A DNA stretch of 64,000 nucleotides from Ostreococcus lucimarinus (Eukaryota). Position 1 is the first letter of the stretch; every line of letters starts with the position of its first letter. The stretch lies in assembly GCA_000092065.1 (NCBI GenBank), contig CP000581.1, one strand, 5' to 3'. A program made the translations under genes and the position numbers. The notes under the pieces were generated by a model. It saw only the letters and a list, made by a program, of their open reading frames with translations, was not told the origin of the DNA and searched no databases. Positions 3,001-63,487 of the stretch are shown piece by piece.

Positions 3001-3740
3001 ATTTGCTCCATGCCACTGTCTAAATCAAACATTTCTCGCATCCCGTGCAGCGTGTTTGGTAGAGTCGACGCTGAGAGATACGTCCCCGCTTCAAACTCTT
3101 CCAACCACGCCTTTCCCGCGCGACTCGCCAGCTCCATACGCTTTGCCGCGCTCTCTCGCGCGGCTGCGTCCCATCCTTCTCCTCCCGGCGTGAACGGCAC
3201 TTGACTAAACGAACCTCGCACGAAATCGCTCTGCGGCGCGGGCGAACGCGCCAACGAACTCGAATCTCCAGCCCCACCTTCGGCGAGAAGTTCGACCTCG
3301 ATCCAATCCGTCGTCGCCAACGTCTCCCCTCGCGCTTGTCGCTCGGCCCAATCCTTTGACGGCGTCGGCGTCGAGTGTGCGTCGTATGCGTCCACGTCGT
3401 ACGGCGTCGGCGTCGGCGCGCGCGGAAGCACCGCCGCCTCCGCCTCGCTCGGCTCTGCGCCCGCGCAGTGCGCGCTCAGCTTCACGCGGGCCATCATCGA
3501 CGCGGACGCAATCAGGGCGTCATCCAGTTCGCTCGCGCGCCGCGCTCGCGCGTCGTGCGCAGCGCCGTCGTCGTTCGGGACGACGGTTGGGTCAAAGCGG
3601 AGCGCGCGCGCGGGGACGCGTTCGACGGCGTCGACGTCCGCGACGTCGTCCTCGTCCACGACGACGATGCGGACGTCACCGCTCGATGTGGGGACGAGGG
3701 CCACGCGATCACCGACGCCCTCGACGAGGAGTCGCATCGC
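1..3740 (-). CDS. SKI2: SKI2/SKIV2L-type RNA helicase (3'-5' exosome cofactor). The C-terminus runs off the window start and about 40 aa are missing.
   Basis: Hand translation of the minus strand gives the motifs FPFELDLFQKEAIVHLEKSENVFVAAHTSAGKT, RLTYGMILNLMRVE and a DSHCT-like C-terminal stretch ...LQRMGYLDENRTVTLKGRVACEI. A roughly 345-aa N-terminal region precedes the helicase core, as in Ski2 rather than Mtr4. The upstream in-frame stop is at 3783-3785 and the first Met (MRLLVEG...) is at 3740. This ORF is absent from the ORF track because it runs off the window edge. Confidence 0.85.
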
Positions 3741-3869
3741 GAACGACGCGGCTGGCTGTGAGGTCGAGCGCGTCGGTTGTCAACGCCGAAGAGCGGAGCA
3801 TCGAGACATCGAATCGCTATAGTATTGAAAAAATAAATTGCGCGCGCTACGCGTGTGAAATAGTTACGC

Positions 3870-5357
3870 TCAAGTTTCGTAACGCTGCTCGCCGAGCAAG
3901 AAAACCTTGTCCGTTCTCGACAAGTCGTGTTCGAATCCGCCATGGCCGATGCGCTCCAGGGCGTCTGCAGGAGAAATATCGAGAAGTTCGTCGCCGAGAA
4001 GGGCGCGCCAGGTGTTGAGATCGGTGATTCCCGTTTCTGGTAAGCGATTACTCGCTTGGAAAGTCAGAAGAGCCGCGGAGGTGGTGCTACCGAAGTACCA
4101 ATACTCCATGTCCTCTTCGCCCGAATCGAAACCTTGTTCGGAGAGGATGACTTGCATCTTGTGAACTTCCATACCGCCGTCGTCTTCGCGAAGGACGGGC
4201 CACTTATGAGCACCTATTTTACCGTTCGTTTCGAATGAAGCGCCTTGAGGCGCACCTCGCTCGTCGTCGTGGCCAAAAGGATCGTAATCATCCGGGGCGT
4301 AGTCCTCTTCCGCCATGACATATTTCGGGTTCGCAGTGGCCGCTTCTGCTGCGGGCGCTTCTACCGAGGGCACCTTGTCCACGACCTCTGGAATCTTGCT
4401 CTCATCGAATGCGATCGCACCCGGTGGAGGTCCCCACTTGAATGCTTCTTCACCGAGCAATGCGCGCCACGTATCCGAATCCACGAGCCCAGTCTCGGGG
4501 ATCCCAGCGTTGGCTTGGAAATACAACAACGCGACCTTCGTCGTTTCGCCGAAGAACATATCCTCCTCGTCGTCTTCCCCGGCCCAGAATCCCGCCTCGT
4601 TTAATTTGTAGTGAATCGTCGTCATCAGATAGATGTCGTCGTCATTTTTCTTGACGAGCGGCCACTCCCCCGAACGATCCGTGCCGTCGCCTCTCCACTC
4701 GCTCACGTCGAGCACGGGCTCGACAATCGGTTCGCTCGCCTCCACATCCACCGCGCCTAACCCACCACCACCAACGCCAAGCATGGCCAACATATCCGCA
4801 TCACTCTTCTCTCCCTTCACGGCGTTCATGCTCGAGCCCGCGTCGAGCGTCCCTCCTCGCGTCGTCGCCGCTCGCACCTCCTCCTTCAGCTCCCGCACCT
4901 CCTTCGTCAACGACCGAATCTCTTTCAGCAGCTCCATCTGCACTTGCGCCGCATCCAAGACTATTTCTCCTCGCTCTTCGCGTATCTCCCGCAGTTCATT
5001 ATCGATCAGCGTGCGTTCGACGCGCAGGCGCGACGTCTCCACCAACGCCGCCTCCGCCGCGTCCCCAGCCTTCTTGAGAAATCCTCGAAGCTTCTTCTTC
5101 CCTCGCGCCACCACCGCGCCGCGCGGAGCGTCCGCGCGCGCGCGTCGCGACGGCGCGAGCGTCACCGGCGTCGCCCCGTCCGCGCGCGCGCGAAGGACGC
5201 AGCGCGCGCGCGGCGTCGCGGCGTCGCCGAATCCACGCCCGACGACGACGACGGCGGCGCGCGCGACGCCTCGAGCGCGCGCCGCGCCGCGCGACGACGA
5301 CGGCGCGCGCGCCGCCGTCGATCGCGTCGACGCGGCGATGGGCGCGCGCGCGCGCAT
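3870..5357 (-). CDS. Protein with an Arg/Ala-rich N-terminal transit-like peptide, a coiled coil and two putative peptidoglycan-binding (PG_binding_1) domains.
   Basis: The ORF is 3870..5738. Two repeats fit the PGBD consensus: FGETTKVALLYFQANAGIPETGLVDSDTWRALLG and FGSTTSAALLTFQASNRLPETGITDLNTWRALLG. A coiled coil reads EIREERGEIVLDAAQVQMELLKEIRSLTKEVRELKEEV. I trimmed the start to the Met at 5357 (MRARAPIAAS...) because the upstream part overlaps a coding-like LRR gene on the plus strand. Confidence 0.6.
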   Translation of the reverse strand: MRARAPIAASTRSTAARAPSSSRGAARARGVARAAVVVVGRGFGDAATPRARCVLRARADGATPVTLAPSRRARADAPRGAVVARGKKKLRGFLKKAGDAAEAALVETSRLRVERTLIDNELREIREERGEIVLDAAQVQMELLKEIRSLTKEVRELKEEVRAATTRGGTLDAGSSMNAVKGEKSDADMLAMLGVGGGGLGAVDVEASEPIVEPVLDVSEWRGDGTDRSGEWPLVKKNDDDIYLMTTIHYKLNEAGFWAGEDDEEDMFFGETTKVALLYFQANAGIPETGLVDSDTWRALLGEEAFKWGPPPGAIAFDESKIPEVVDKVPSVEAPAAEAATANPKYVMAEEDYAPDDYDPFGHDDERGAPQGASFETNGKIGAHKWPVLREDDGGMEVHKMQVILSEQGFDSGEEDMEYWYFGSTTSAALLTFQASNRLPETGITDLNTWRALLGDELLDISPADALERIGHGGFEHDLSRTDKVFLLGEQRYET

Positions 5358-5475
5358 GTCGGAAGACGACGCGACGCGACGAGAGCGCGCGTGACAATGC
5401 CGACACCGACGCGCTGCGCGCGAGACGTCGACGCGCGACGCGCGGACGACGCGTCGAGGCGTCGAGTCGACGGCG

Positions 5476-6078
5476 ATGACGCGGTCGAGCGCGATGCGCG
5501 CGCTCGCGCGCGCGCGCGCGCGCGTCGTCGCCGCGCGCGCGCGCGGTGGGAACGTTTCGTCGTCGTCAAAGTTCGCGTCGATGACGACGACGACGACGAC
5601 GCGCCCGAGCGACGACGTCACCGCGCGCACGCTGCTCGAGGCGAACGGCAAGCGATTCGACGTCGCGATGCCGCGCGGCGTGGCGCTGCAGGCGCTGTTG
5701 CTCGCGCGAAGCGACGACTTGAAGTGCGTGGACATCATGTGTCAGTGGGTGGGGGACGCGTGCGCGTGCAGGCTCGCGCGCGCGCTCGACAGGCGAGGGG
5801 AGGCGCTCAGGGTGCTGGATGTTTCTGGGAACAGGCTGCGCGCGCTGCCGAGCGCGGTGTGGGCGATGCGGGCGCTGGAGGTGTTGGACGCGAGCGACAA
5901 CGCGTTGACGCCGGCGGACGTCCCGTTCGACGATTTGATGGACGAGACCAAGGATGTGGCGCCGAATCTCAAGGTTTTGAATTTAAGGGGGAACGTGGCG
6001 GTGATAGATGGGTTAGAGGGGCGATTGAGAGAGGTCGTGGACGCCATGGCGCGTCGCGGCGTGAAGCTCGTGTTGTAG
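5476..6078 (+). CDS. Small leucine-rich-repeat protein.
   Basis: LRR units read LRVLDVSGNRLRALPSAVWAMRALEVLDASDNALT...NLKVLNLRGN. Third-codon positions are GC-rich and codon-like. An alternative start is the internal Met near 5578. Confidence 0.5.
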   Translation: MTRSSAMRALARARARVVAARARGGNVSSSSKFASMTTTTTTRPSDDVTARTLLEANGKRFDVAMPRGVALQALLLARSDDLKCVDIMCQWVGDACACRLARALDRRGEALRVLDVSGNRLRALPSAVWAMRALEVLDASDNALTPADVPFDDLMDETKDVAPNLKVLNLRGNVAVIDGLEGRLREVVDAMARRGVKLVL

Positions 6079-6093
6079 TAAAGCGGTTAGCGT

Positions 6094-7284
6094 TTGATTA
6101 AACGTCATTCGTCGTCGCGCATGTCAGCGTCATCGCGTTGCGGTGCGCGAGCCGCCTCGACATCGTCGCCGTCGCGTCATCTCTCGCGTCGCCGCCCTTC
6201 GCGCGCGCGCGCGTCGATGGCGTCGGTTGCCAGCCAGCTCCCGGTGCTGTCGCTGCCGCGAGAAGACGCCGACGAAAACTCACACCGCGCGTTCGCCGCG
6301 GAGCTGTGTCGAACGTGTCACGACGTTGGATTCTTTTATTTATCGAATCACGGCGTCGAGCAGGCGTGCGACAACGTTCTCGACGCGTCGAGGGCGTTCT
6401 TCGCGTTGCCACTGGCTGAGAAGAAAGAGATAGACTACACGCGAAGTCGAGCGTTTCGAGGATACATGTACGACGGCGCCGAAAACACCGCTGGAAAGCC
6501 AGATCGAAGAGAGCAGATTGAATTCGGTGTCGAGTGCGCCGAAACGTGCGCCACCGAAGGGCCATATTACGAGCGATTAAAAGGTCCAAATCAGTGGCCG
6601 GCTCAGGTGCCGCTTCGCGCACCAGTGGAAGATTTCCAAAACAAAATGGCGACGTTGAGTCGAAGAATCATGACTTATTTGGCGATCGGACTAGACCTCG
6701 ACGGCGGTTATTTCGATTCCATGTTCGGCGACGAACCGAACGTGCAGATGAAAATTTGCCGGTATCCGCCGAGCGACGGATCCGTCGGCGAACACAGCGA
6801 CACTGGAATTCTTTCTTTTGTCGTCCAAGACTCGGTCGGTGGTTTGCAAGTGCAGCTTCACGATAGCGGTGAATGGATTGATGCGCCGCCGATCGACGGA
6901 ACGCTCGTCGTCAACTTGGGGGAGATGATTCAACTAATCACCGGCGGCTACTTTCTTGCCACGCCGCATCGCGTTCAAAACCTGAACGGCAGCCAGGCGC
7001 GATACTCGGTGCCTTACTTTTGGAATCCGGAGCTAGACTATCGAGTCGAATTTATAGAGTCCTCCATATTGGACAGTTTGGTTTGGCATCGGCCGCGACC
7101 GTCGGACGATTCCTTCAGAGCGACGGGATCGCACGGCGGCGCGAATCGACTCATCTCAGCGTACGGCGAAAACGCGTTCAAATCGTTCGCACGGTCTCAT
7201 CCCGTAGTCATGCGAAGGCATCATTCAGACTTAGTGATGAACCCCGACGGTAGTATAACTAGTCCTAGCAGCTCAATATTATAA
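6094..7284 (+). CDS. 2-oxoglutarate/Fe(II)-dependent dioxygenase of the isopenicillin-N-synthase/ACC-oxidase-like family.
   Basis: A DIOX_N-like N-terminus (FFYLSNHGVEQ) is followed by a 2OG-FeII_Oxy core with an HxD...H triad (VGEHSDTGILSFVVQD ... ATPHRV) and RYSVPYFWNP. The Ser/Arg-rich first 41 aa may be a targeting peptide. An alternative start is the ATG at 6217 (MASVASQLPVL...). Confidence 0.8.
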   Translation: MIKRHSSSRMSASSRCGARAASTSSPSRHLSRRRPSRARASMASVASQLPVLSLPREDADENSHRAFAAELCRTCHDVGFFYLSNHGVEQACDNVLDASRAFFALPLAEKKEIDYTRSRAFRGYMYDGAENTAGKPDRREQIEFGVECAETCATEGPYYERLKGPNQWPAQVPLRAPVEDFQNKMATLSRRIMTYLAIGLDLDGGYFDSMFGDEPNVQMKICRYPPSDGSVGEHSDTGILSFVVQDSVGGLQVQLHDSGEWIDAPPIDGTLVVNLGEMIQLITGGYFLATPHRVQNLNGSQARYSVPYFWNPELDYRVEFIESSILDSLVWHRPRPSDDSFRATGSHGGANRLISAYGENAFKSFARSHPVVMRRHHSDLVMNPDGSITSPSSSIL

Positions 7285-52945: not shown

Positions 52946-55180
52946 CTACAAATGTCTACCGGCCACGCGGTGGGGCTCGGGAATGAGCGCCTTGGTGCGC
53001 GATAATCGAGCTACCGTGACGAGCTTGTTGTCGATGGGAATGCTCGGATCGGCGAGCTCCAAGACGTCGATGCGCACCGAACGCCACTCGTCTCGCGAAA
53101 AGAGATGTTGATGACGTTGAATGGCCTGGTACAATGAATTCAAGGCGTAAATTAACATGCCTTGCTGCACCGATCGACGCTCAGCGATCTTTAAGCTGGT
53201 TAAGGCGCGCTCGGCTTCGTGAAGGAGCATGCGCATCTCTTCCCGATGTTTCGAGCGACGACGATGAGCGGAGAGCGAGAGCGACGCCTTCATCGCGAGC
53301 ACCGTGGTGTACATGCCGAGAGCCGCGGGAAAACAAGCCATGAGGGAAAAGTTAAGGCGGTTCGCCCGCATGAGTTGATCCATTTGCATCAACGCACCTT
53401 CCATCTCTACTTTCATGACTTGCGTTTGTAGGAGAAGCAGTTGCATGAGATCTCCTGCGAGCATGTTCGTCAGCGGACTCTTGAGTTCTTCTTCGACACG
53501 AGCCGTCACGAGGCGCGTCGGGTCGGGGGTGACTAAGACCTTTTCTTCGCCCTCACCTTTGCTTCCGCCGCCCACGGACTTGTATGCGCGATAGAGAGAT
53601 TCAGAGTAACCCGGTCTCGACGCTTGTTTCGTGTATTCACCGAGCATGCGATCAAGAGACGCCTTACTTTCTTCCAATCTCTCTATCGCGTCGTCCGGGC
53701 GATCTGAGACAAACGCCGCCTTGAGCTCATCTCGCAACTCTTTCACGGGATCGAGAATGCGCATCTTCAGGAACGTGATGAATGCAGCCTTCGCCGCGTG
53801 TAACGTGTTATCCAGATCATCGCTTCCACACAGGCGACTGTGACGAATCATCACCGTCGTCGAAATCACAAACGTCGCGCTGCCAATCGTGTACAGCAAC
53901 CACCGTCTGACGTGCTTCGACGGCTTCGCGTGAACCTCCAAAGCATCGTGCGATGAGTCGCGAACTTCCGACCACTCTTGCTCGACGCGATTCAACGCCT
54001 GCCAAATCGTATCATTCACCTTTGGCAGAGAAAGTGGCCGACCGTTGACGACGAGAGGCTGTCGGAAGCGATGCGCGACCGCGGCGTCTTCGGGCTGCTT
54101 GCTCAAGTCCATGCTCGCCAACCGCTGCAAGCGGCTCAAAGGACGCGTCGGTCCCGGAGACAGATCGCGATCAAAGTCACCACTCGATCGCGTACTCGAC
54201 CGTGGTGTGGGCTCGGGCAAATCGGGCATCATATCTCGCAACCGCTTACCGTGACTCAATCGATGCAGAGACTTTAACAACTTTGGCGAGTCTCTCGCCG
54301 CGAGCCGCGACGAATTTGACACTTTTGCCAAGTCTCCCACGGTTTCTCTCGACTTCGTCGCGTACTCTTTCACTTGTTCTAAACACTCTAATAAGCCATC
54401 CGTGGCCTCGATGATCGCCTGCCGCGTCATCTCTCTCGACTCACCGCCCATGCTCGCGCTCAACGAACTCTCCCCGCTCGCGTTTGCGACGGTGTCCGCG
54501 TGATGATGCACGCGGCCGACGACGCTGGCCAAGCTCACCTGCAACTCATTCAACGCGTTCACTCGCCCATCGATGATCACTCGCGCGCTCGCGCTCGGAA
54601 GCGCAAACTTTGCGTCCGTCCCGTTCAACGCCGCGCGCGCGTGACACCATAAACGATACGTCCCTTCCCTCGCGAGCGCCACGAAATTACTCGGCCCCGT
54701 GTTGAACAGCAAAAACCGCGCCTGCCCGCTCGGTCGATCTCTCAACACCTCCCAAAAGCTCAGCGAGCTCGTCGCGACGTGTAAATCAAGCAACAACTCC
54801 CGACTCATGTCCTGCGCGAAAAACAACGTCGCTCGCGCGGCGTGTCCGAGGTCGCTCGCCTCGCTCGCCTCCTCCGCTCTGCTTTCGTCGCCGTCGAGCG
54901 CCGCCGACACCGCGAACGCGTCCCTCCACCACACCGCGCTCGCGCCCGTGCGTCCATCCTTATCGAAAAACACCGGCAGCGATTTCACCGCGCGCGCGCT
55001 CCTCGCGCCGCGCTCTCGCGCCCTCGCGCGCGCGTGCGTCGCTCGCTTTCGCAGCTCCTTGGCCACGTCCCAAAACGACCCGTGCTCCCCTCGCGCCCGG
55101 CGCTTCTCCTCGGCGGCGTCCAGGACGTCGCGCGCGACGTCCCTGAACAACCGCCGCACCGGCGGTCCGTCGCTCGCCAT
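52946..55180 (-). CDS. Membrane protein, tentatively NCA2-like (nuclear control of ATP synthase).
   Basis: The ORF is 744 aa after trimming to the Met at 55180 (MASDGPPVRRLFRDV...). The C-terminal region has hydrophobic helices (NFSLMACFPAALGMYTTVLAMKASL) and conserved-looking blocks (MLIYALNSLYQAIQRHQHLF, EWRSVRIDVLEL). The family assignment is weak. The first 212 aa of the track ORF are Arg-rich and were rejected as an over-extension. Confidence 0.4.
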   Translation of the reverse strand: MASDGPPVRRLFRDVARDVLDAAEEKRRARGEHGSFWDVAKELRKRATHARARARERGARSARAVKSLPVFFDKDGRTGASAVWWRDAFAVSAALDGDESRAEEASEASDLGHAARATLFFAQDMSRELLLDLHVATSSLSFWEVLRDRPSGQARFLLFNTGPSNFVALAREGTYRLWCHARAALNGTDAKFALPSASARVIIDGRVNALNELQVSLASVVGRVHHHADTVANASGESSLSASMGGESREMTRQAIIEATDGLLECLEQVKEYATKSRETVGDLAKVSNSSRLAARDSPKLLKSLHRLSHGKRLRDMMPDLPEPTPRSSTRSSGDFDRDLSPGPTRPLSRLQRLASMDLSKQPEDAAVAHRFRQPLVVNGRPLSLPKVNDTIWQALNRVEQEWSEVRDSSHDALEVHAKPSKHVRRWLLYTIGSATFVISTTVMIRHSRLCGSDDLDNTLHAAKAAFITFLKMRILDPVKELRDELKAAFVSDRPDDAIERLEESKASLDRMLGEYTKQASRPGYSESLYRAYKSVGGGSKGEGEEKVLVTPDPTRLVTARVEEELKSPLTNMLAGDLMQLLLLQTQVMKVEMEGALMQMDQLMRANRLNFSLMACFPAALGMYTTVLAMKASLSLSAHRRRSKHREEMRMLLHEAERALTSLKIAERRSVQQGMLIYALNSLYQAIQRHQHLFSRDEWRSVRIDVLELADPSIPIDNKLVTVARLSRTKALIPEPHRVAGRHL

Positions 55181-55285
55181 CGCGCGTCGCGAGGCGACGC
55201 GCGTCGCGCTCTGGCGTCGCCGCTCGCCCGCCGTCGCGTCGACCGGGACGGTCGCGTCCCGCACCGCGCGACGCGCGCGCCCGCG
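55181..55285. promoter_or_regulatory. Putative ~105-bp bidirectional promoter between the NCA2-like gene (minus) and the JmjC/NTase gene (plus).
   Basis: The genes are divergent and both starts were trimmed to the first ATG that does not overlap the neighbour. Confidence 0.3.
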
Positions 55286-57139
55286 ATGCGCGCGGCGTCG
55301 ACGGCGTCGACGGCGTCGACGTCGGCGCCCTCGACGTCGGCGCCGACGCTCGGCGCGCGCGCGGCCGGCGCGCGCGCGCGCGTCGCCGTCGCGCTCGGTC
55401 GACCGCTGCGACCGAACGCGCGACGCGCGACGCTGAAGCCGCCGCCGATCGACCTCGAGGGAGGGGCGCCGACGGCGTGCGCGGAGATTGATTACGAACG
55501 CGACGTCGTCGCGGCGAACGTCGGCGCGCGCGCGCTCGGGGAAGCGCTCGCGCGGTTGCGCGAACCGCTGGTGGTCAGGGGCGGCGCGAAGGCGTGGCGC
55601 GCGAGCGGTCGGTGGACGCTGGAGACGCTCGTGCGAGAATACGGCGATTGGCGGTGCGACGTGCGCGTGATAGCGTCGCCGGAGACGAACGATGGACGGG
55701 AGTTCGTGTACTGCGAGGAGTCGCACGAGGCGGTGCGAGAGGGAAAGTTCGCGGCGCCGAGCGCGACGGCGACGATGGATTTCGCGACGGCGGCGGCTAA
55801 AGTTTTGAGATTTCACGGCGATGGGGCGTACGTGCAGTCAAAAATATCGGAGAAAATGACGCTGGAATGCGTCGGGGGAGTGAGCGATGCGTTCGGCGCG
55901 CTCGGTGAGGAGTCGCAGGAGCGCAGGCTGTGGCTCGCGCTCGCCGGGTCGGTGTCGCCGATGCATTTCGACGCGTCGACGAGCACGTTGGTCCAAGTCG
56001 GCGAAGGAACGAAGCGCATGCTTTTGTATCAACCATTCGCGCTTTCTGCGATTGACTTGTATCCAAATTGGCATCCTCTTCGTCGACGAGGAAGACGCTT
56101 CGCGCCGAAAGCCCTTGTTAGAGAGGCTATCATCGCGCCAGGAGACGCGCTCATTTTCCCTCCGCGCTGGGCGCACTACACTGAAAGTTGTGGCGATCGA
56201 GTGTCCGCATCGGTTACGCAGCGATTCAAGCACAGTCGCGGCATGAAGTACAGCGATGATATCGCAGGAAAATTTCAACGCTGGGCGAATAATCGCGACA
56301 GACCCAATGCGCTTGCGCGTCTCGTCTCCAGCGGGCTCGTGGAGTCTGACGTCGGCACAGTTTTGCCACGCAACGCACGCACGGGTGAAGTGATGCCGAT
56401 CGATTCGAGTGGTTGGGAAAGGTCGACAAATGTTGAGTGGCGCACTGCGGCGATCGAGTGCGCGACGATGATCAAAGAACACATCGCAGAGGGAGATTTA
56501 ATTGGGATTTATAGTCGTGGTTCCGTGGCAAATGGAACTGCGCGCAAAAATATTTCTGACGTTGACTTGATCGTCATCACTCGTCAACGCGGATTGGACG
56601 AAGACTTCGTGCGCGACGATTTACAGCAACGGTGGCTACCTCGTCACGCACACATGGTGAAGAAATGTGATGTTCGTTTTGAGTACGTCGCGTCGGAAGC
56701 AGAAATCGCAACGAGTGCTTCGGTGGATACTTTTGTCATCGCGACGCAAAGCGTAACCATTTTCGGATCACCCCTTCCAACTTCCCTGCCATCGAGCGCG
56801 CGAATTCCGAAGCCTCGAATTTTGGAAAGCGTGCAGGACGACGTCGACGCCGCGATTCGGCATGGTTCAGAACGCTCGCTCACGTGGGCGTTGAAACGTC
56901 TCATCAGGGCGTCCTACGAGAAGTATGCTTTGCCCGTTGATGGTGTTGAGTACACGAGAGATTTGTATCATTGCGTCAGATTAGCACTGCTGCACGCGAA
57001 TATTGATGTTACGAGCGAATTGACGACGGCCCTCGTGCTCTGCGTGCACTCGCCTCGTAAGGTGTGTGGCGATGTCTTGTGGAGAGCGCTGACCGAAGCC
57101 CTTTGTCGTCGTTTAGTAGCTGCGCTGAGTTGTATTTGA
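55286..57139 (+). CDS. JmjC/cupin-domain protein fused to a C-terminal nucleotidyltransferase-fold domain.
   Basis: A JmjC-type cupin reads WRASGRWTLETLVREYGDWRCDVRV ... SPMHFDASTSTLVQVGEGTKRMLLY ... IFPPRWAHYTES (H-x-D...H). The C-terminus DLIGIYSRGSVANGTARKNISDVDLIVI resembles an NTP_transf_2 GS...D.D motif and is followed by an alpha-helical tail. I trimmed the start to the Met at 55286; the track ORF from 54842 overlaps the neighbouring minus-strand gene. Confidence 0.6.
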   Translation: MRAASTASTASTSAPSTSAPTLGARAAGARARVAVALGRPLRPNARRATLKPPPIDLEGGAPTACAEIDYERDVVAANVGARALGEALARLREPLVVRGGAKAWRASGRWTLETLVREYGDWRCDVRVIASPETNDGREFVYCEESHEAVREGKFAAPSATATMDFATAAAKVLRFHGDGAYVQSKISEKMTLECVGGVSDAFGALGEESQERRLWLALAGSVSPMHFDASTSTLVQVGEGTKRMLLYQPFALSAIDLYPNWHPLRRRGRRFAPKALVREAIIAPGDALIFPPRWAHYTESCGDRVSASVTQRFKHSRGMKYSDDIAGKFQRWANNRDRPNALARLVSSGLVESDVGTVLPRNARTGEVMPIDSSGWERSTNVEWRTAAIECATMIKEHIAEGDLIGIYSRGSVANGTARKNISDVDLIVITRQRGLDEDFVRDDLQQRWLPRHAHMVKKCDVRFEYVASEAEIATSASVDTFVIATQSVTIFGSPLPTSLPSSARIPKPRILESVQDDVDAAIRHGSERSLTWALKRLIRASYEKYALPVDGVEYTRDLYHCVRLALLHANIDVTSELTTALVLCVHSPRKVCGDVLWRALTEALCRRLVAALSCI

Positions 57140-57196: not shown

Positions 57197-60100
57197 CTAC
57201 ATTTGCGCGAGGATAGCGCTCAAGGCCTCCGCATCGAGGCCCTTGAGTTCGCTCACGAATTGGGCGACTTGCGCGGCGCGTCCCTTGACCATGACATCCG
57301 CCATCACCTTATCAGAGCTGTTTTCAAGCAACGCAGCGACCGCACGGTCGTCGTTGGCGTTGACCCCCGAAGCAGCGATGGCATCTTCGACGAGAGCTTC
57401 GATTGACTTGTCGAGCTCAACGTCGCCAAGCTGCTCCTTGATCCTACTTGCTAACGCGTCCACGGCAAGTCTGCGCGTGAGCCTACCGTGGAAATAGCGG
57501 CGAGCGTTTTGCCACTCGACGACATCTCGAATGACTCCCTTGGCCTTCATGCGACCACTGCGATCGTGGAGATCGGCGAACTCGTGCGCGACTTGCGTGT
57601 ACATCGGCAAGAGGTTCGCTTCCCGCTTCTTGATCTCATCCTTGTTCTTCTCCGGATCCTCAGCCAAGTTGGCAAGGATCGGGTCCAACCGGTGCATCGC
57701 GGCGATCTGATCCTTGGAGCGGAACTTGACTTCGCAGATACCTGGCGGTTCGAGGATACCACCTCGAGATTCCTTATCCGCGTACATCTCCATTCTCGCT
57801 TCGTTGATGGTCGGGTCGACGACGACCCAAGCACCACCCCGAAGCTCACCGTTCGGCGGAATGTAGACGAACACCGGATGGCGGTACACTCGAAGTTCAT
57901 CGACAATCATCGCACCGAACTTCAAGATCTCTCCGTACATGTCCCGGGTACCGCCGCTGAAACCACGCCAGTTGGCAAAGATGAAGAGAGGCAAGTTTTC
58001 GGCGTTGTTGAAATCTCTGATAGCAGTCGCAGTCTTGTGAGCGCTGTCAGGGAACCACACTTGACCAGCTTGAGCCAAAACCGCTTCACGCGATTCCGGG
58101 TTGGCGGGGTCGGCGGGGATGCGTTGCTCCATCAAGCGAGTTTCGACGGCAATGACACCGCACGGAATACCACCAAGACGCGCTCGACCGGTGACAACGG
58201 ACTTACCCCAATCGGGCAACGTCTCAGTCCACGAGTTCACATCGAAGAAACCCTTAGCAAAAGCACCATTCGACTGCACACCCGCAAGCATGTTGCGAGG
58301 ATCGTACGGCGTCTTCGTCGGCATGAATTCAATGTCGCGATCGACCGGATCAGACGTGCGAAGCGCAGGCGCTTGCGACTTGGACGTGGCCGGAGTGTAC
58401 GACAACCACTTCAAGATGGACCGAACGCCCTCTTGGTCGTCAGACACTTGCAAGTGAGACACACCATTCGGCATCATGACTTGCGGGCCGCCGAGCTGAT
58501 CTTGGCTCGTGTAAACTTCACGGCCGAGCAGCTTGTTCAACGCCAAGTAACCGGTGAGGATGAGCGGACCATTCGTCATTTGAATGTTACGCTGGCCCAA
58601 GCGGCACAGGTAGGCACCGATACCGACAGATCGACCGGTGACGTAAGACAACGTGAAAGCGTCGGCGTACGCGGCGGATTGCTCGCCGGCAATCATACCG
58701 GAGCCTCGCAAGTTTTCGACACCGATGCCATGGATTTGACCGATGATGTCGGTAAGCTTCATGCGCGTTTCGCCACCCTCTACGATCTCTTCCGCCGCGA
58801 CGGTACCTTCCGGGAACACCTTATAATCGTCCGGAGTGAGGTAGAGGTACTTGAAACCCATGCCTGGATTGGAATCGTCAATCCACGCGATCTTGAAGTA
58901 CGGCTTGAGTTCCTCGACGAGACCGATGCGCGCGCCAGAGTTAGACGCGATGTACACTCGCGGCAAGCCCAAGTTGCGCGCATACTTGGAAACGGCGTCG
59001 TAGACATCGTCTTCCTTGACACCGAAAGAACCAGACATGTAGGTGCAATCATTACCGACGATGACGATTTCTCGGCCTTGGGGGTACTCGGGCGTTTTCA
59101 TAAAGCAATGCCAGCCAACCATGCCGACGTTGTTCGATCCCGCCGGGCGTTGTTCCTTCGTGAGCACTCCATCTTCGCCCAGGACGAGTTCGGAAGCACT
59201 GAAGAATTCACTTGGCATCGTACCACCGACATCGGCGACGTGAGCACGCCAGTCAAGAACCAAGGCCTTTTCGAAAAGACCGAGGAAGTCGAAAATGTAA
59301 GTCGTGCCGATCGCACGAGCCACGGCGCGCTTTTGTTGCAGAGCACCCGGTTGCGGATACGGCTCAAGGAAGCACGCTTGTTCTTCACCGTTCGGGCCGA
59401 GCATGCAGAACTGTTCGGCCTTGCCAGTCGTCGGCTCCAAATACTCCTTGTACATATCAACCTTCAACCACTGACCAGACATGGAGGTGGCCATGAGACG
59501 AAGCGGCACCTTCTCCTTGCCGACGCGGACGCGGATCTCAATTTCATCCACTCGTCGCGCGAGCAAAGACGCAGACTCGCGGCTGATGAAGTCGGCGAGC
59601 TTATTCTTCAGAGAAGAGATAGCAACGGAGAAGTTTTGTTCTTCGAGATGCGGCAAGAAGTTGACGTAAATTCTGGACGACGAAGCACCCTTGGCTCGGC
59701 TGTCCATCAGAGACAGAGACAACGCCTCGACGGCCTTGTCAAGAACACGCTCCAATCCGCCTTCCATGACATCCTTGGAATGAGAGAGACGGCGCAACAA
59801 CAAGTGCTTTGCTGGACCGCGCCGAGCACCGACCGAAGACTCACCGACGTACATGTGAAGATCACGGTTCACAGTCGGGAGACGAGTCAAGCCATAGTTC
59901 TCGAGACGAGCGAGTTCGAGAAGGTGAGCGACAGTGGGTCGTTCACCGCGGTACAGTAAGTCTTCCTTGAAATCCTTGGAAGAGTGGAACGTGTAGTACG
60001 ACGGAAGCTCGAGGTTCGCATACGCGAGAACGTTCACGAACTTAATGCCCATCGATTCAAGACGCGGCTTTTGCGTCGCGATGAAGGCCTCGAGATCACC

Positions 60101-63100
60101 CGGCAACGAATCGTCGGCGCTTTGTTGGCAAATTGCCACGTGAAGAACGTGCATTTGGTCGTTCGAAGCGCCGGCCGCCTTGATGGTGGCATCAAGTCGG
60201 TCCAAGATTGCGGTGAAACGCGACTTGGCTTCCGCAACATTGTCCACGCGCGCCAAAAGACCGCATCGGAGCGGGCTCTCATCCGGGAAAGTATTGAACT
60301 TGAACTGCCAGCTGATGGAAGTCATGCCATCATCGCGCGACACCGCGGTGCTGAGCACGTTGTGCGCACGGAAAACACGCTTGGCGTACACTTCAAGGGC
60401 AGCATTCTGCACCTTTTCATCCTTGTCCGCGAAGAGCGCAGGCAACAAATCAACGGCGAGAGTCGGCGACTCAACCAAAGACTGAAGACCACCCGCGCTT
60501 GCCTTGCCCCAGGTGCGCGACAACGGTTGCGAGCCGATGAGAATCTTCTTCAATTCTTCCAAGCGCTTGTCAATAGACGGCAAGCGACGCTCGATGAGAA
60601 TGTTGGACGCGACGACAGCGATATCGCCGTATTCGTTGCCGCGAAGCTTAGAGAGAGCTTCGATGTTTCCACGTAGAGAGTCGGAGATCGGGGCGTGATC
60701 GTCCGCCCATGAAATCGGACCTCGAGAAAGAACTCGCTGCGGCAAAGTCGGCGCTTGCTTCAATAGCGACAAGATGAGATCTTGACGCTGCTTGGATCGC
60801 ATATGCGCACGAACCTGATTCAACACCGGGGTCAAGTTGCTACTGTTCGAGCGAATCAATTGTTGCATGACAGCATCCATCGGCTTGCCTTCAAACACGC
60901 TTTCGACGCTGAGGTAACGTTGAATGATTTGCTCGAGCACAGTCGTCGCTCGTTCCCATCGGCCTTGATCTGCCGGAAGAGCAGTGAGGCAGTTGAACAA
61001 GTCAGAAACACATTCATCCGCATCGAGCTCATAACCGTCTAAGAGTAAGTTTACTCGCGCCACAGCAGCTTCGAGAGCTTCCTCCGGACCCGCCGGAGTA
61101 GACTCATCGGCGGGGATGCGAAGCGCACCAGAGAAAGTGCTGATCTTCTTTACCTTGCTCGGATCCTTCAACTCAAGCGACGCAAGCAAGTCACCGGCTT
61201 CGATAACGGCGCCAGCAGACTTGGCGTGAGACACATTGCCGCTTTCAGTGGCGATGAGGGGCATAACCATCTTCATCGCTTCGACTTCGGCGAACGGCTT
61301 CCCAGCCACGACTTCAGCACCGTCGTCTTGGAGGAAGCGAATGAGCTTACCAGTGACGTCGGTGCGAAGCTCAGATGGGTCGAAAACGTTCGGCAGTAGC
61401 CAAGTTTGACCGTCAAGAATCATTCTCAAGCCAAGCGGTTCCTCGAGACCCTCGACCTCGTGTTGTTCACCACCGAAAGTACCGACGAGGGCGCCATCCG
61501 GACGCTCGCGAAGCTTGGCTTCGATCTTCTGGCCTTCCGGAGTGACAATGCAGAAAGTATCCGGGCCCGGTCGAGTCACTTCGAAAGAGTACTTCGTGTC
61601 CTGGTACGTGATTTCGACCGGAAAGCGAATCATCTTGTCGACACCTTGCACAGACACCTGGCCCTTTTGCCAGAACTCCGTAAAGGCGCTCTCTTCAGCC
61701 TTCGCCATGTTGAAAGCACGGAACAAAGCAGCACCGACCACAATCATGTGCGGGTCTTGCTTGTTGGCGATTTCCTTCTTCGCGATCAACCCGTCCAACC
61801 AAGAGGTGTCGATGGTATTATCCTTGAACTCACCCGTTTCGAGAAGCTGAACCAAGTACTCGACGGCGGTGCGGATTTCACCGCGCACGACCATGCCCTT
61901 GAGAGCGAGCACGAGCGCCTTGCGCGCTTCGTTACGGGTTTTGCCAGATGCAAAGATGTGACCGAACTGGGAATCCGCAAACTCGTGTACGCCCCCATTG
62001 GTGCCGACAGAGAAGTAACCCCACACGTTGGGCGTAGACTGGAACTGCACGCGCTCGATGCCACCAGACGTCGGCTTGAAACCTTCATCCGGGTTCTCGG
62101 CGGTGATGCGCGCTGCGATGACGTGAGTTTGCGGCAAGATGTAATCTTCTTCCATGAAGTCAATACTGTCCGTCGTTTCCGTGTCACGCCCGTAAAAGGT
62201 TCGAATTTCCGGGATGCGCTCGAGCGGAATACCCATGGCAACTTGCAACTGCGTCGCGGGAAGGTTGACACCAGTGATGCCTTCCGTCACCGGGTGCTCG
62301 ACTTGCAAACGCGGGTTGAGTTCAAGGAAGAAGTACTTGTCTGTCGCTGCGTTGTACAAGTACTCAACCGTACCAGCACCAATGTAACCAATATTCTTTG
62401 TCAAACGCTGCGCTGCCTTTTCCATTTCTCTGAAAATTTCCGGCTTGGCAATCGTCGGAGGACCTTCCTCAAAGATCTTCTGGAATCGACGCTGCGTGGA
62501 GCAATCACGACCGTTCAAGGCAATGGCATTACCGTACTCGTCACCGACAATTTGCACTTCCAAGTGACGCGCCTGCGTACAAAGCTGCATCATGAACATC
62601 GGCGAGCCCGGGACTTCAGCCTTGACTTGCTCAAAGTTTGTTCGAAGCTGCTCTTCATCCGCGCTCATACGAATACCCTTACCACCACCACCTTCAGACG
62701 CTTTCAACATGACCGGGAAACCGATGCGTTTCGCCGCCGCGACGCACTCCTCGACCGTCGTGACCATCGCCTTGTTGAAAATTTCTTCCGGAATCGTGCC
62801 CTCCTCCGTCAACTCTGCGACGAGACCGTCGCCAGACCACGGAATAGACGGAACCTTGGCGGTTTGCGCCAAAATATTGGCCGCAATCTTATCGCCTAGC
62901 ACGCTCATCACCGGCGCAGTCGGGCCGATGAATTGCACGCCGATCGCCTTGAGCGAAGTCGGGAGCTTTGGATTCTCGGAAGCGTGACCCCATCCCGGCC
63001 AAACCGCGTCGACGCCTTCGCGCTTGGCGATTTCTGTGATCAAAGGCACGTTGGCGTAGTTGTTCTTGTTCGAACCACCCGGAACTTCGACGTAGTCATC

Positions 63101-63487
63101 CGCGAAACGGATAAACTCGGCGTTCGCCGCGATGTCCTCCGGGGTCGCCATGGCCAAGAATTGAATTGCGTTTTCATCCCCGAACGTGTTAAACGCCCAA
63201 CGCCGCATCGAGAGAATGCTCTTCGTCGCCGCCATACCGTTGTTCGCGATCAACACCTTACGAATCACCCGTTTCCCTCCTCTTTCAGCCACATACTTGG
63301 CCAACGCATCCGCGCTCGACGCTGAAGCCGTGCTCGCCGCCGAATCCGCGACGGCGTCGCGCGCCTGCGCGTCGCCGCGCTTCGTCGCGCGCGCCACGCC
63401 GACGCGTCGCGCCGAGTCCGCCCTGCGCACGCACGCGCGCGCCGACGTCCCCTTCTTCACGTCACCCAAAACTACGCGCGCTCGCAC
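57197..63487 (-). CDS. ACC: Homomeric (multidomain) acetyl-CoA carboxylase.
   Basis: The 2096-aa product has biotin carboxylase (RKVLIANNGMAATKSILSMRRWAF, ATP-grasp), BCCP with EAMKMVMPL, a central region and the carboxyltransferase beta and alpha domains. A Ser/Ala-rich N-terminus may be a targeting peptide. Confidence 0.95.
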   Translation of the reverse strand: MRARVVLGDVKKGTSARACVRRADSARRVGVARATKRGDAQARDAVADSAASTASASSADALAKYVAERGGKRVIRKVLIANNGMAATKSILSMRRWAFNTFGDENAIQFLAMATPEDIAANAEFIRFADDYVEVPGGSNKNNYANVPLITEIAKREGVDAVWPGWGHASENPKLPTSLKAIGVQFIGPTAPVMSVLGDKIAANILAQTAKVPSIPWSGDGLVAELTEEGTIPEEIFNKAMVTTVEECVAAAKRIGFPVMLKASEGGGGKGIRMSADEEQLRTNFEQVKAEVPGSPMFMMQLCTQARHLEVQIVGDEYGNAIALNGRDCSTQRRFQKIFEEGPPTIAKPEIFREMEKAAQRLTKNIGYIGAGTVEYLYNAATDKYFFLELNPRLQVEHPVTEGITGVNLPATQLQVAMGIPLERIPEIRTFYGRDTETTDSIDFMEEDYILPQTHVIAARITAENPDEGFKPTSGGIERVQFQSTPNVWGYFSVGTNGGVHEFADSQFGHIFASGKTRNEARKALVLALKGMVVRGEIRTAVEYLVQLLETGEFKDNTIDTSWLDGLIAKKEIANKQDPHMIVVGAALFRAFNMAKAEESAFTEFWQKGQVSVQGVDKMIRFPVEITYQDTKYSFEVTRPGPDTFCIVTPEGQKIEAKLRERPDGALVGTFGGEQHEVEGLEEPLGLRMILDGQTWLLPNVFDPSELRTDVTGKLIRFLQDDGAEVVAGKPFAEVEAMKMVMPLIATESGNVSHAKSAGAVIEAGDLLASLELKDPSKVKKISTFSGALRIPADESTPAGPEEALEAAVARVNLLLDGYELDADECVSDLFNCLTALPADQGRWERATTVLEQIIQRYLSVESVFEGKPMDAVMQQLIRSNSSNLTPVLNQVRAHMRSKQRQDLILSLLKQAPTLPQRVLSRGPISWADDHAPISDSLRGNIEALSKLRGNEYGDIAVVASNILIERRLPSIDKRLEELKKILIGSQPLSRTWGKASAGGLQSLVESPTLAVDLLPALFADKDEKVQNAALEVYAKRVFRAHNVLSTAVSRDDGMTSISWQFKFNTFPDESPLRCGLLARVDNVAEAKSRFTAILDRLDATIKAAGASNDQMHVLHVAICQQSADDSLPGDLEAFIATQKPRLESMGIKFVNVLAYANLELPSYYTFHSSKDFKEDLLYRGERPTVAHLLELARLENYGLTRLPTVNRDLHMYVGESSVGARRGPAKHLLLRRLSHSKDVMEGGLERVLDKAVEALSLSLMDSRAKGASSSRIYVNFLPHLEEQNFSVAISSLKNKLADFISRESASLLARRVDEIEIRVRVGKEKVPLRLMATSMSGQWLKVDMYKEYLEPTTGKAEQFCMLGPNGEEQACFLEPYPQPGALQQKRAVARAIGTTYIFDFLGLFEKALVLDWRAHVADVGGTMPSEFFSASELVLGEDGVLTKEQRPAGSNNVGMVGWHCFMKTPEYPQGREIVIVGNDCTYMSGSFGVKEDDVYDAVSKYARNLGLPRVYIASNSGARIGLVEELKPYFKIAWIDDSNPGMGFKYLYLTPDDYKVFPEGTVAAEEIVEGGETRMKLTDIIGQIHGIGVENLRGSGMIAGEQSAAYADAFTLSYVTGRSVGIGAYLCRLGQRNIQMTNGPLILTGYLALNKLLGREVYTSQDQLGGPQVMMPNGVSHLQVSDDQEGVRSILKWLSYTPATSKSQAPALRTSDPVDRDIEFMPTKTPYDPRNMLAGVQSNGAFAKGFFDVNSWTETLPDWGKSVVTGRARLGGIPCGVIAVETRLMEQRIPADPANPESREAVLAQAGQVWFPDSAHKTATAIRDFNNAENLPLFIFANWRGFSGGTRDMYGEILKFGAMIVDELRVYRHPVFVYIPPNGELRGGAWVVVDPTINEARMEMYADKESRGGILEPPGICEVKFRSKDQIAAMHRLDPILANLAEDPEKNKDEIKKREANLLPMYTQVAHEFADLHDRSGRMKAKGVIRDVVEWQNARRYFHGRLTRRLAVDALASRIKEQLGDVELDKSIEALVEDAIAASGVNANDDRAVAALLENSSDKVMADVMVKGRAAQVAQFVSELKGLDAEALSAILAQM

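Follow-up and report, generated by a model that had tools for sequence, protein, structure and literature searches.

The gene described here lies on a stretch of 64,000 nucleotides from Ostreococcus lucimarinus (GenBank assembly GCA_000092065.1, contig CP000581.1), which is referred to below as the window. On the plus strand, positions 55286-57139 form an open reading frame (ORF) of 617 codons that runs without interruption and closes in TGA, and the encoded protein is 100% identical to XP_001415546.1 (UniProt A4RRC2) of O. lucimarinus CCE9901. The databases list it as a 'predicted protein', 'JmjC domain-containing protein' or 'predicted nucleotidyltransferase', which are automatic domain labels only. 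A previous examination of the DNA, made from its letters alone (the sequence-only reading), had proposed a JmjC-like cupin with an Fe-binding HxD...H pattern, fused to a C-terminal nucleotidyltransferase (NTase) of the NTP_transf_2 type. The motifs on which it leaned were located at residues 225-231 (PMHFDAS), 295-301 (WAHYTES) and 405-430 (IGIYSRGSVANGTARKNISDVDLIVI). Both domains were borne out by our analysis, in which an oxygenase of the FIH1 clade is joined to a Pol-beta-type NTase. The coordinates of all features are collected in Table 1.

In the N-terminal domain, Pfam Cupin_8 matched residues 88-310 with an E-value of 3.9e-13 and 50.3 bits (gathering threshold 27.4), and JmjC_2 scored 25.8 bits against a threshold of 22. 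When this domain was searched against the PDB as a single sequence, only weak matches to JMJD5 and FIH were obtained. A profile built from 14 diverse family members (A6) matched human FIH at E 2.4e-34 across nearly the whole catalytic domain, followed by JMJD5 (5e-19), TYW5 (2.7e-11; 3al5) and JMJD7 (1e-9). FIH, and not TYW5, is therefore the closest JmjC relative by profile, and it was also the top Foldseek match of the full-length model. The full set of Fe(II) and 2-oxoglutarate (2OG) ligands is present and invariant or nearly so, the three Fe(II) ligands H227, D229 and H297 being invariant; K243 shows no variation in A6 and almost none in alignments A1 and A5. An 'HP' motif is diagnostic of the FIH1 family, which has been recorded in chlorophyte algae (Iyer et al. 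2010, PMC2938197), and in the algal family P264 is invariant and H263 nearly so. The domain is thus a member of FIH1, a clade of protein hydroxylases.

The loop that follows the HP motif differs from that of FIH. R267 corresponds to FIH R238 and is kept, while an invariant R268 replaces FIH Q239 and R266 replaces FIH D237, giving a conserved HPLRRR loop. In FIH, R238 and Q239 bind the target Asn (Hampton-Smith et al. 2019, PMC6488082). As an invariant Arg stands at a residue that holds the target Asn in FIH, the target side chain may differ from asparagine and may be acidic.

FIH (HIF1AN) is a JmjC asparaginyl, aspartyl and histidyl beta-hydroxylase, and the algal domain shares its JmjC subfamily, Fe triad, 2OG ligands, HP motif and R238 equivalent. 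The published criteria for FIH orthologues (Hampton-Smith et al. 2019, PMC6488082) ask, among other features, for at least two of the three 2OG ligands and more than 200 bits to human FIH. The Fe ligands H199, D201 and H279 are all represented (H227, D229 and H297), as are the 2OG ligands Y145, T196 and K214 (Y182, S224 and K243). Of the residues that bind the target Asn, only R238 is retained (R267), Q239 having become R268. The single-sequence phmmer score was 28.6 bits, and only the family profile reached 122 bits. The criteria also include C-terminal dimerisation helices; the profile alignment stops at about FIH residue 296, and the modelled helices 326-335 and 342-348 run into the NTase module. 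After the double-stranded beta-helix the algal chain continues into a linker and the NTase module instead of terminating in the manner of FIH. Judged by these criteria, the algal protein is not an FIH orthologue.

The C-terminal domain required a family profile to be recognised, as its single-sequence PDB search returned only noise (PBP2a at E~2). Pfam NTP_transf_2 gave a short match at residues 407-435, just over the gathering threshold (22.5 against 21 bits), with the G-S motif, the DxD motif and the third carboxylate all found. The NTase-module profile matched only NTases of the Pol-beta superfamily in the PDB (OAS, CdnD, ANT(3'')(9), MNT and HalB), with E-values of 0.003-0.1, all over the GS/DxD region. 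In an alignment of 15 algal and bacterial homologues (A2), reaching down to about 21-29% identity, R411-G412-S413 and S424-D425 are invariant and D427 is nearly so. By HMMER and hhalign, D425, D427 and D462 align with D47, D49 and E87 of AadA, the last of which is the catalytic base, and the triad is thus intact. Residues 13-95 of the AadA sequence used for this comparison are identical to the 7uy4 chain segment; hhalign of A2 against AadA aligned the NTase core only and left the residues of the helical subdomain unmapped. A search for homologous proteins with A2 yielded one fragment only, from which nothing could be learned.

The closest structural matches of the module were ANT(3'')(9), ANT(9), ANT(4') and LinB, with ANT(3'')/(9) the closest over the full length, and the two-subdomain fold of ANT(3'') and ANT(9), an NTase core followed by a C-terminal helical domain, is present. 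The structurally similar ANT enzymes and MNT all transfer AMP onto hydroxyl groups. Scores against the NCBIfam models were far below their cut-offs (ANT_9, 20.2 against 340 bits; ANT(3'')-Ic, 15.2 against 545 bits). Unlike AadA and ANT(9), the algal module has its own N-terminal extension with a beta-hairpin, together with the family-specific motifs W..KR..R and TRDL..C, and it is fused to, or in bacteria encoded beside, a JmjC hydroxylase; nothing suggests that its substrate would be an aminoglycoside. This extension occupies the linker from about residue 340 and was modelled as a beta-hairpin at about 359-369 and a helix at 380-397, and it is also present in the free-standing bacterial homologues. 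The HEPN motif Rx4-6H was sought in A2 and was not conserved there; W..KR..R and TRDL..C are conserved instead, the former probably serving as a putative binding site for the NTP phosphates or the substrate. In MNT-HEPN toxin-antitoxin systems the two parts are likewise found, but here both form one ANT-like module, lacking Rx4-6H and any toxin-antitoxin context. From these alignments and matches the module is a complete NTase with an intact catalytic triad, nearest in architecture to the O-adenylyltransferases that act on hydroxyls, and it is too divergent to be placed in any of these families. The result that would have told against the sequence-only reading, a C-terminal region without an NTase fold, was thus not obtained.

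Table 1. Positions of the fusion gene and its features in the window, and of the small-protein genes at bacterial loci (positions within the locus named)
Feature	Position	Strand	Remarks
Complete coding sequence of the 617-aa fusion protein	55286..57139	+	Includes TGA stop 57137-57139; equals XP_001415546.1
Residues 1-17, Ala/Ser/Thr-rich N-terminus, predicted disordered, not conserved among orthologues	55286..55336	+	Predicted local distance difference test (pLDDT) <50 in full-length model; variable in A1
Residues 22-36, N-terminal helix within folded protein	55349..55393	+	Full-length model, pLDDT 88-93 blocks
FIH1-clade JmjC / Cupin_8 2OG/Fe(II) oxygenase domain, residues ~61-320	55466..56245	+	Pfam Cupin_8 and JmjC_2; profile A6; Foldseek
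Y182-V-Q184	55829..55837	+	FIH Y145 (2OG ligand) and Q147; Y182 and Q184 invariant (A5/A6, HMMER alignment to FIH)
S224 (Thr in most orthologues)	residue 224	+	FIH T196, 2OG ligand
H227-F-D229, HxD Fe(II)-binding motif	55964..55972	+	FIH H199 and D201; both invariant
K243	56012..56014	+	FIH K214, binder of 2OG C5 carboxylate
H263-P264-L-R266-R267-R268, FIH1-family HP motif and substrate-positioning loop	56072..56089	+	H263-P264 correspond to FIH H234-P235
H297, distal Fe(II)-binding histidine	56174..56176	+	FIH H279; invariant
Conserved linker, residues 321-400	56246..56485	+	A1/A2, models
Pol-beta-type NTase core, residues ~401-495	56486..56770	+	
R411-G412-S413 ... S424-D425-V-D427, G-S motif and two metal-binding aspartates	56516..56566	+	AadA D47/D49; A2, A5
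K460-C-D462; D462 is the third catalytic carboxylate	56663..56671	+	AadA E87; always D or E in A2
C-terminal HEPN-like helical-bundle subdomain, residues ~503-617	56792..57136	+	
W534-A-L-K537-R538-L-I-R541, family-specific basic motif	56885..56908	+	W534 and R541 invariant, R538 nearly so in A2
T557-R558-D559-L-Y-H-C563, second family-specific motif, helical subdomain	56954..56974	+	R558 invariant; D559 and C563 nearly invariant in A2
Small-protein gene, L014	3114-3395	-	
Small-protein gene, L026	3787-3996	+	
Small-protein gene, L028	1586-1873	+	
Small-protein gene, L048	4658-4882	-	
Small-protein gene, L051	4434-4721	-	
Small-protein gene, L056	7324-7653	-	
Small-protein gene, L067	2411-2569	-	
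Small-protein gene, L071	1304-1564	+	
Small-protein gene, L046	4588-4977	-	
Small-protein gene, L006	151-282	+	
Small-protein gene, L005	4997-5227	+	

The fusion is not confined to Ostreococcus. About 20 orthologues of 597-642 aa, with 47-62% identity and mostly from marine metagenomes (Mamiellophyceae), can be aligned over their whole length, the linker being conserved, and a homologue from Pycnococcus provasolii has the same domain order, which is also unchanged in longer forms of 850-1050 aa that carry low-complexity insertions. Since these full-length orthologues and Pycnococcus have all retained both domains, the fusion is under selection. The full-length model had a pLDDT of 83 and a predicted template modelling (pTM) score of 0.81, the latter suggesting that the two domains take up a defined arrangement. 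The identical sequence, with the same flanking genes, was also found on dozens of marine metagenome contigs.

An exhaustive HMMER search with domain mapping (A2, A6) further identified about 30 cluster representatives of the reverse order, in which the NTase module comes first and the JmjC domain of the FIH-type subfamily last. These include Mesostigma viride, Klebsormidium nitens (GAQ89297.1), Scenedesmus sp. (KAF8066381.1, annotated 'hif1an'), Pedinophyceae sp. (CAG9463368.1) and a Pterosperma transcript, and both orders occur across chlorophyte and streptophyte algae. It is difficult to see why the same two domains should be joined in either order if they did not act together, and it is therefore likely that they cooperate. 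The search for the same fusion in other algae, which had been proposed with the sequence-only reading, has thus produced Mamiellophyceae, Pycnococcus and reverse-order green-algal forms.

Free-standing homologues of the NTase module were found in bacteria, where two of them, P0205 and P0195, adjoin JmjC_2 genes. A degenerate DNA pattern, built by hand over the W..KR..R and TRDL..C motifs and run on reference genomes, recovered 65 loci, all of them true homologues by hidden Markov model (E 1e-18 to 1e-64). Their hosts are filamentous cyanobacteria, Saccharibacteria and other members of the candidate phyla radiation (CPR), Saprospiraceae, Ideonella, Bdellovibrionales and Woesearchaeota. When the neighbouring ORFs were clustered without supervision, the commonest neighbour was one JmjC family, found at 13 of 67 loci in at least five lineages and belonging to the NO66/MINA53/YcfD clade of protein hydroxylases. 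The JmjC and NTase genes were co-directional or overlapping at L005, L006, L016 (an alphaproteobacterium) and L053 (Bdellovibrionales). In a Bacteroidota metagenome-assembled genome (JBEEMZ010000018.1; L037, 6530-7999, minus strand) a single ORF carries the NTase followed by JmjC_2 (residues 302-428 of the visible 490 aa, the N-terminus being cut by the locus end). Of the bacterial homologues, the two that scored best against the algal NTase domain were JmjC-linked.

Immediately upstream of the JmjC gene, and in the same orientation, a small gene was found at 10 of the 13 loci with JmjC linkage. In Lyngbya sp. PCC 8106 (L026), for example, the small gene at 3787-3996 is accompanied by the JmjC gene at 4094-5260 and the NTase gene at 5289-6125. 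The proteins, of 43-129 aa, have a conserved layout; they often have a Sec-type signal peptide, followed by a motif resembling R-[IL]-x-[IV]-E-I-E-D-L, an Asp/Tyr-rich core of DYDYDxD repeats (for example NQDYDYDVD, or DYDQDYDQDYDQDYDYDHDY) and a basic tail, and no Pfam family matched them. Such a protein looks like a dedicated candidate substrate or precursor. A search of the window for Asp/Tyr-rich ORFs that might serve as local substrates gave no convincing candidate, only runs of poly-Asp in GC-rich frames.

The NTase family was also observed in other company. At seven loci from Patescibacteria/CPR, Gammaproteobacteria, Woesearchaeota and Desulfotomaculum (L009, L012, L030, L047, L049, L059 and L066), it is accompanied in every case by a conserved protein of about 437 aa with a Cys motif and no Pfam match, and often by an alpha/beta hydrolase (Hydrolase_4). 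In five of these seven (L012, L047, L049, L059 and L066) the NTase ORF is about 506-515 aa. No JmjC gene is present at these loci, so the NTase family has other partners too. In Ideonella paludis (L070, 1179-2525, plus strand) a stop-to-stop ORF of 449 aa holds the NTase module and then a GNAT acetyltransferase domain (323-442), either as a fusion or as two adjacent genes in frame. On the metagenomic contig L005, the set of NTase, small ORF and JmjC genes has a 2OG dioxygenase of the PhyH family (2540-3379, plus strand) and a GntR regulator shortly upstream of it, and this second oxygenase may belong to the cluster.

The best reading of these observations is that the algal protein is a bifunctional enzyme, which hydroxylates a substrate and then nucleotidylates a hydroxyl on that same substrate, although our confidence in it stops somewhat short of even. 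The FIH1-clade JmjC domain would use Fe(II), 2OG and O2 to hydroxylate a carbon of the bound substrate, which would most likely be a protein or peptide side chain, possibly an acidic one. The ANT(3'')/(9)-like Pol-beta core and helical bundle would then transfer a nucleoside monophosphate, most likely AMP from ATP, to a hydroxyl of the same substrate. The most economical target would be the newly installed hydroxyl, giving an O-nucleotidylated hydroxy-residue. Such a coupling in two steps is supported because both active sites are intact and the pairing is recurrent. The domain assignments, the conservation of every catalytic ligand, the single polypeptide and the recurrence of the pairing are solid, whereas the substrate, the reaction order, the nucleotide and the targeting of a single atom are inferred.

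Both domains come from known superfamilies, and there is precedent for fusing a hydroxylase with a transferase that modifies the hydroxyl. Lysyl hydroxylase 3 (PLOD3/LH3) combines a 2OG lysyl hydroxylase with glycosyltransferase domains that modify the new hydroxyl. There too, a 2OG/Fe(II) enzyme makes a side-chain hydroxyl that a fused transferase then alters, but the oxygenase is not of the JmjC type, the chemistry is glycosylation and the domains have no homology to the algal ones. The precedent within the FIH clade itself is found in Monosiga, where an FIH1-family domain is fused to a P-loop sulfotransferase, and bacterial gene clusters have been described in which the hydroxyls that dioxygenases produce go on to be methylated or sulfated (Iyer et al. 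2010, PMC2938197). The Monosiga protein resembles the algal one in holding an FIH1-clade hydroxylase and a hydroxyl-modifying transferase in one polypeptide, so that a hydroxyl could be made and then decorated. It differs in its lineage and in carrying a sulfotransferase rather than an NTase, and that paper mentions no NTase fusion. Literature searches for a JmjC-NTase pairing found no paper that describes one, in agreement with the earlier impression that the fusion belongs to no described family. The sequence-only reading had further suggested that hydroxylation or demethylation could be coupled to nucleotidylation. The coupling itself gains support from the reverse-order fusions and the bacterial gene neighbourhoods, whereas demethylation is unlikely because the JmjC domain falls in the FIH1 clade of protein hydroxylases.

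Several observations weigh against hydroxylation followed by nucleotidylation as the function of the fusion protein. The bacterial JmjC partners belong to the ROX/JmjC_2 clade and are not of the algal FIH type, and because of this difference the neighbourhoods support a general partnership of a JmjC enzyme with this NTase rather than a system of orthologues. A JmjC gene is missing next to about 80% of the bacterial NTase homologues sampled. In cyanobacteria the JmjC and NTase genes are convergent and do not form one operon, and the cyanobacterial cases are not phylogenetically independent. The median score against the algal NTase domain did not differ between JmjC-linked and unlinked bacterial homologues (28.5 against 31 bits). 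The likeness to ANT enzymes is distant, at 13-14% identity. Finally, the orthologue P0004 (metagenomic, 600 aa) has SDVYL in place of SDVDL, with Tyr at D427, and its transferase may be inactive; it is the sole exception among 16 aligned full-length proteins.

A wider proposal can be made tentatively, as a possibility that we place well below even. An ancient two-enzyme system of a JmjC hydroxylase and an ANT-like NTase, so far unrecognised, may be common to bacteria and the whole green-algal lineage, the bacterial pair being accompanied by substrate-like Asp/Tyr-rich proteins. Its product would be a nucleotidylated hydroxy-amino acid on proteins or peptides, made by hydroxylation and then O-AMPylation. 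We know of no description of such a modification. If the proposal is true, coupled hydroxylation and nucleotidylation would be added as a new kind of protein or peptide modification, and a function would be provided for an FIH-clade enzyme in green algae, which are not known to have a HIF pathway. The same would apply to a widespread unannotated NTase family of cyanobacteria, Patescibacteria/CPR, Bacteroidota and Proteobacteria. The three-gene sets of cyanobacteria make the predicted chemistry directly testable.

Five rival explanations were considered, which we rank in decreasing plausibility as action on separate residues, a small-molecule substrate, a non-catalytic NTase module, RNA modification and a gene-model artefact. 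In the first, both domains would be active on a shared protein or peptide, each at a residue of its own, for example by AMPylation of a Tyr, Ser or Thr and hydroxylation of a nearby Asp, Asn or His, and one mark could recruit or gate the other enzyme. Nothing separates this from sequential action on a single atom. Aliphatic hydroxyls are the targets of ANT(3'')/(9), which match the module best in structure over the full length, and the Asp/Tyr-rich proteins were seen only at the bacterial loci, whose JmjC partner is of a different clade. We regard this possibility as unlikely, without being far-fetched.

Another possibility is that the substrate is a free amino acid, a sugar-like metabolite or a non-ribosomal peptide, which is hydroxylated and then nucleotidylated for activation or inactivation, in the manner of the aminoglycoside adenylyltransferases. 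The best structural matches, i.e. ANT(3'')(9), ANT(9), ANT(4') and LinB, are indeed small-molecule O-adenylyltransferases, a PhyH dioxygenase occurs in the L005 neighbourhood, and bacterial JmjC genes of the FIH1/yW-hydroxylase clade are found in non-ribosomal peptide synthetase and siderophore clusters (PMC2938197). However, FIH, a protein hydroxylase, is by far the nearest match of the algal JmjC domain, the bacterial JmjC partners come from the clade of ribosomal-protein hydroxylases, and the gene beside the cyanobacterial pairs encodes a small conserved protein. The fusion gene is flanked in the window by genes for NCA2 and acetyl-CoA carboxylase, and by no biosynthetic genes. A small-molecule substrate is thus distinctly unlikely.

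It could also be argued that the JmjC domain alone is catalytic, with the NTase-like module serving for nucleotide sensing, regulation or substrate docking; a degenerate substrate-binding NTase had been offered as the alternative in the sequence-only reading. The marginal Pfam match (22.5 against 21 bits) and the D427Y change in one orthologue could be taken in this sense, and as FIH dimerises through its C-terminal helices (PMC6488082), a C-terminal module could be merely structural. Against this, the G-S motif, the DxD motif and the third carboxylate are kept in algal forms of both orders and in the 65 bacterial homologues, R411-G412-S413, S424-D425 and an acidic residue at 462 persisting down to about 21-29% identity. 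These residues align with the catalytic residues of AadA, and pseudo-enzymes normally lose such residues. The degenerate module is for these reasons disfavoured, and we consider it improbable.

RNA or tRNA modification, in which a TYW5-like base hydroxylase would be paired with an NTase resembling CCA-adding enzymes or terminal transferases, is more improbable still. TYW5 is a JmjC/Cupin_8 enzyme that shares its higher-order clade with FIH (PMC2938197), RNA 3' ends are the substrates of many Pol-beta NTases, and the invariant RRR loop could bind phosphate. The JmjC profile nevertheless places the domain with FIH (E 2e-34) rather than with TYW5 (3e-11), the transferase module resembles the ANT and MNT-HEPN architectures and not CCA-adding enzymes or poly(A) polymerases, and no RNA-binding domain was detected in a Pfam scan of the fusion protein. 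That two adjacent genes have been read as one ORF, the circumstance that would have undone the single-gene claim of the sequence-only reading, can practically be dismissed, as no stop interrupts the ORF, the linker is structured as well as conserved, the architecture recurs in about 20 orthologues, the protein equals RefSeq XP_001415546.1 and the reverse-order fusion occurs in a Pterosperma transcript.

The N-terminus of the fusion protein is rich in Ala, Ser, Thr and Arg, and an organelle transit peptide was considered for it. This was not supported by the model, in which predicted disorder is limited to residues 1-17 and the helix at 22-36 is confidently placed within the fold, which argues against a long cleaved targeting peptide.

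Downstream, the fusion gene is followed by a convergent acetyl-CoA carboxylase gene (2096 aa, 57197-63487, minus strand), which ends 57 bp past the fusion-gene stop codon, and upstream by a divergent NCA2-family gene on the minus strand. The mechanically listed ORFs of the window overstate gene lengths. At 52946-55816 on the minus strand and 54842-57139 on the plus strand, high GC content gives rise to very long spurious extensions and antisense ORFs, among them a 956-aa minus-strand ORF that extends beyond the true start of NCA2 to overlap the fusion gene, and a GTG-initiated 765-aa version that is a spurious extension of the fusion ORF. The start codons of NCA2 and the fusion gene (window 55160-55290) lie about 21-105 bp apart, depending on the choice of ATG (NCA2 models of 744 or 772 aa), and this spacing implies a very compact bidirectional promoter.

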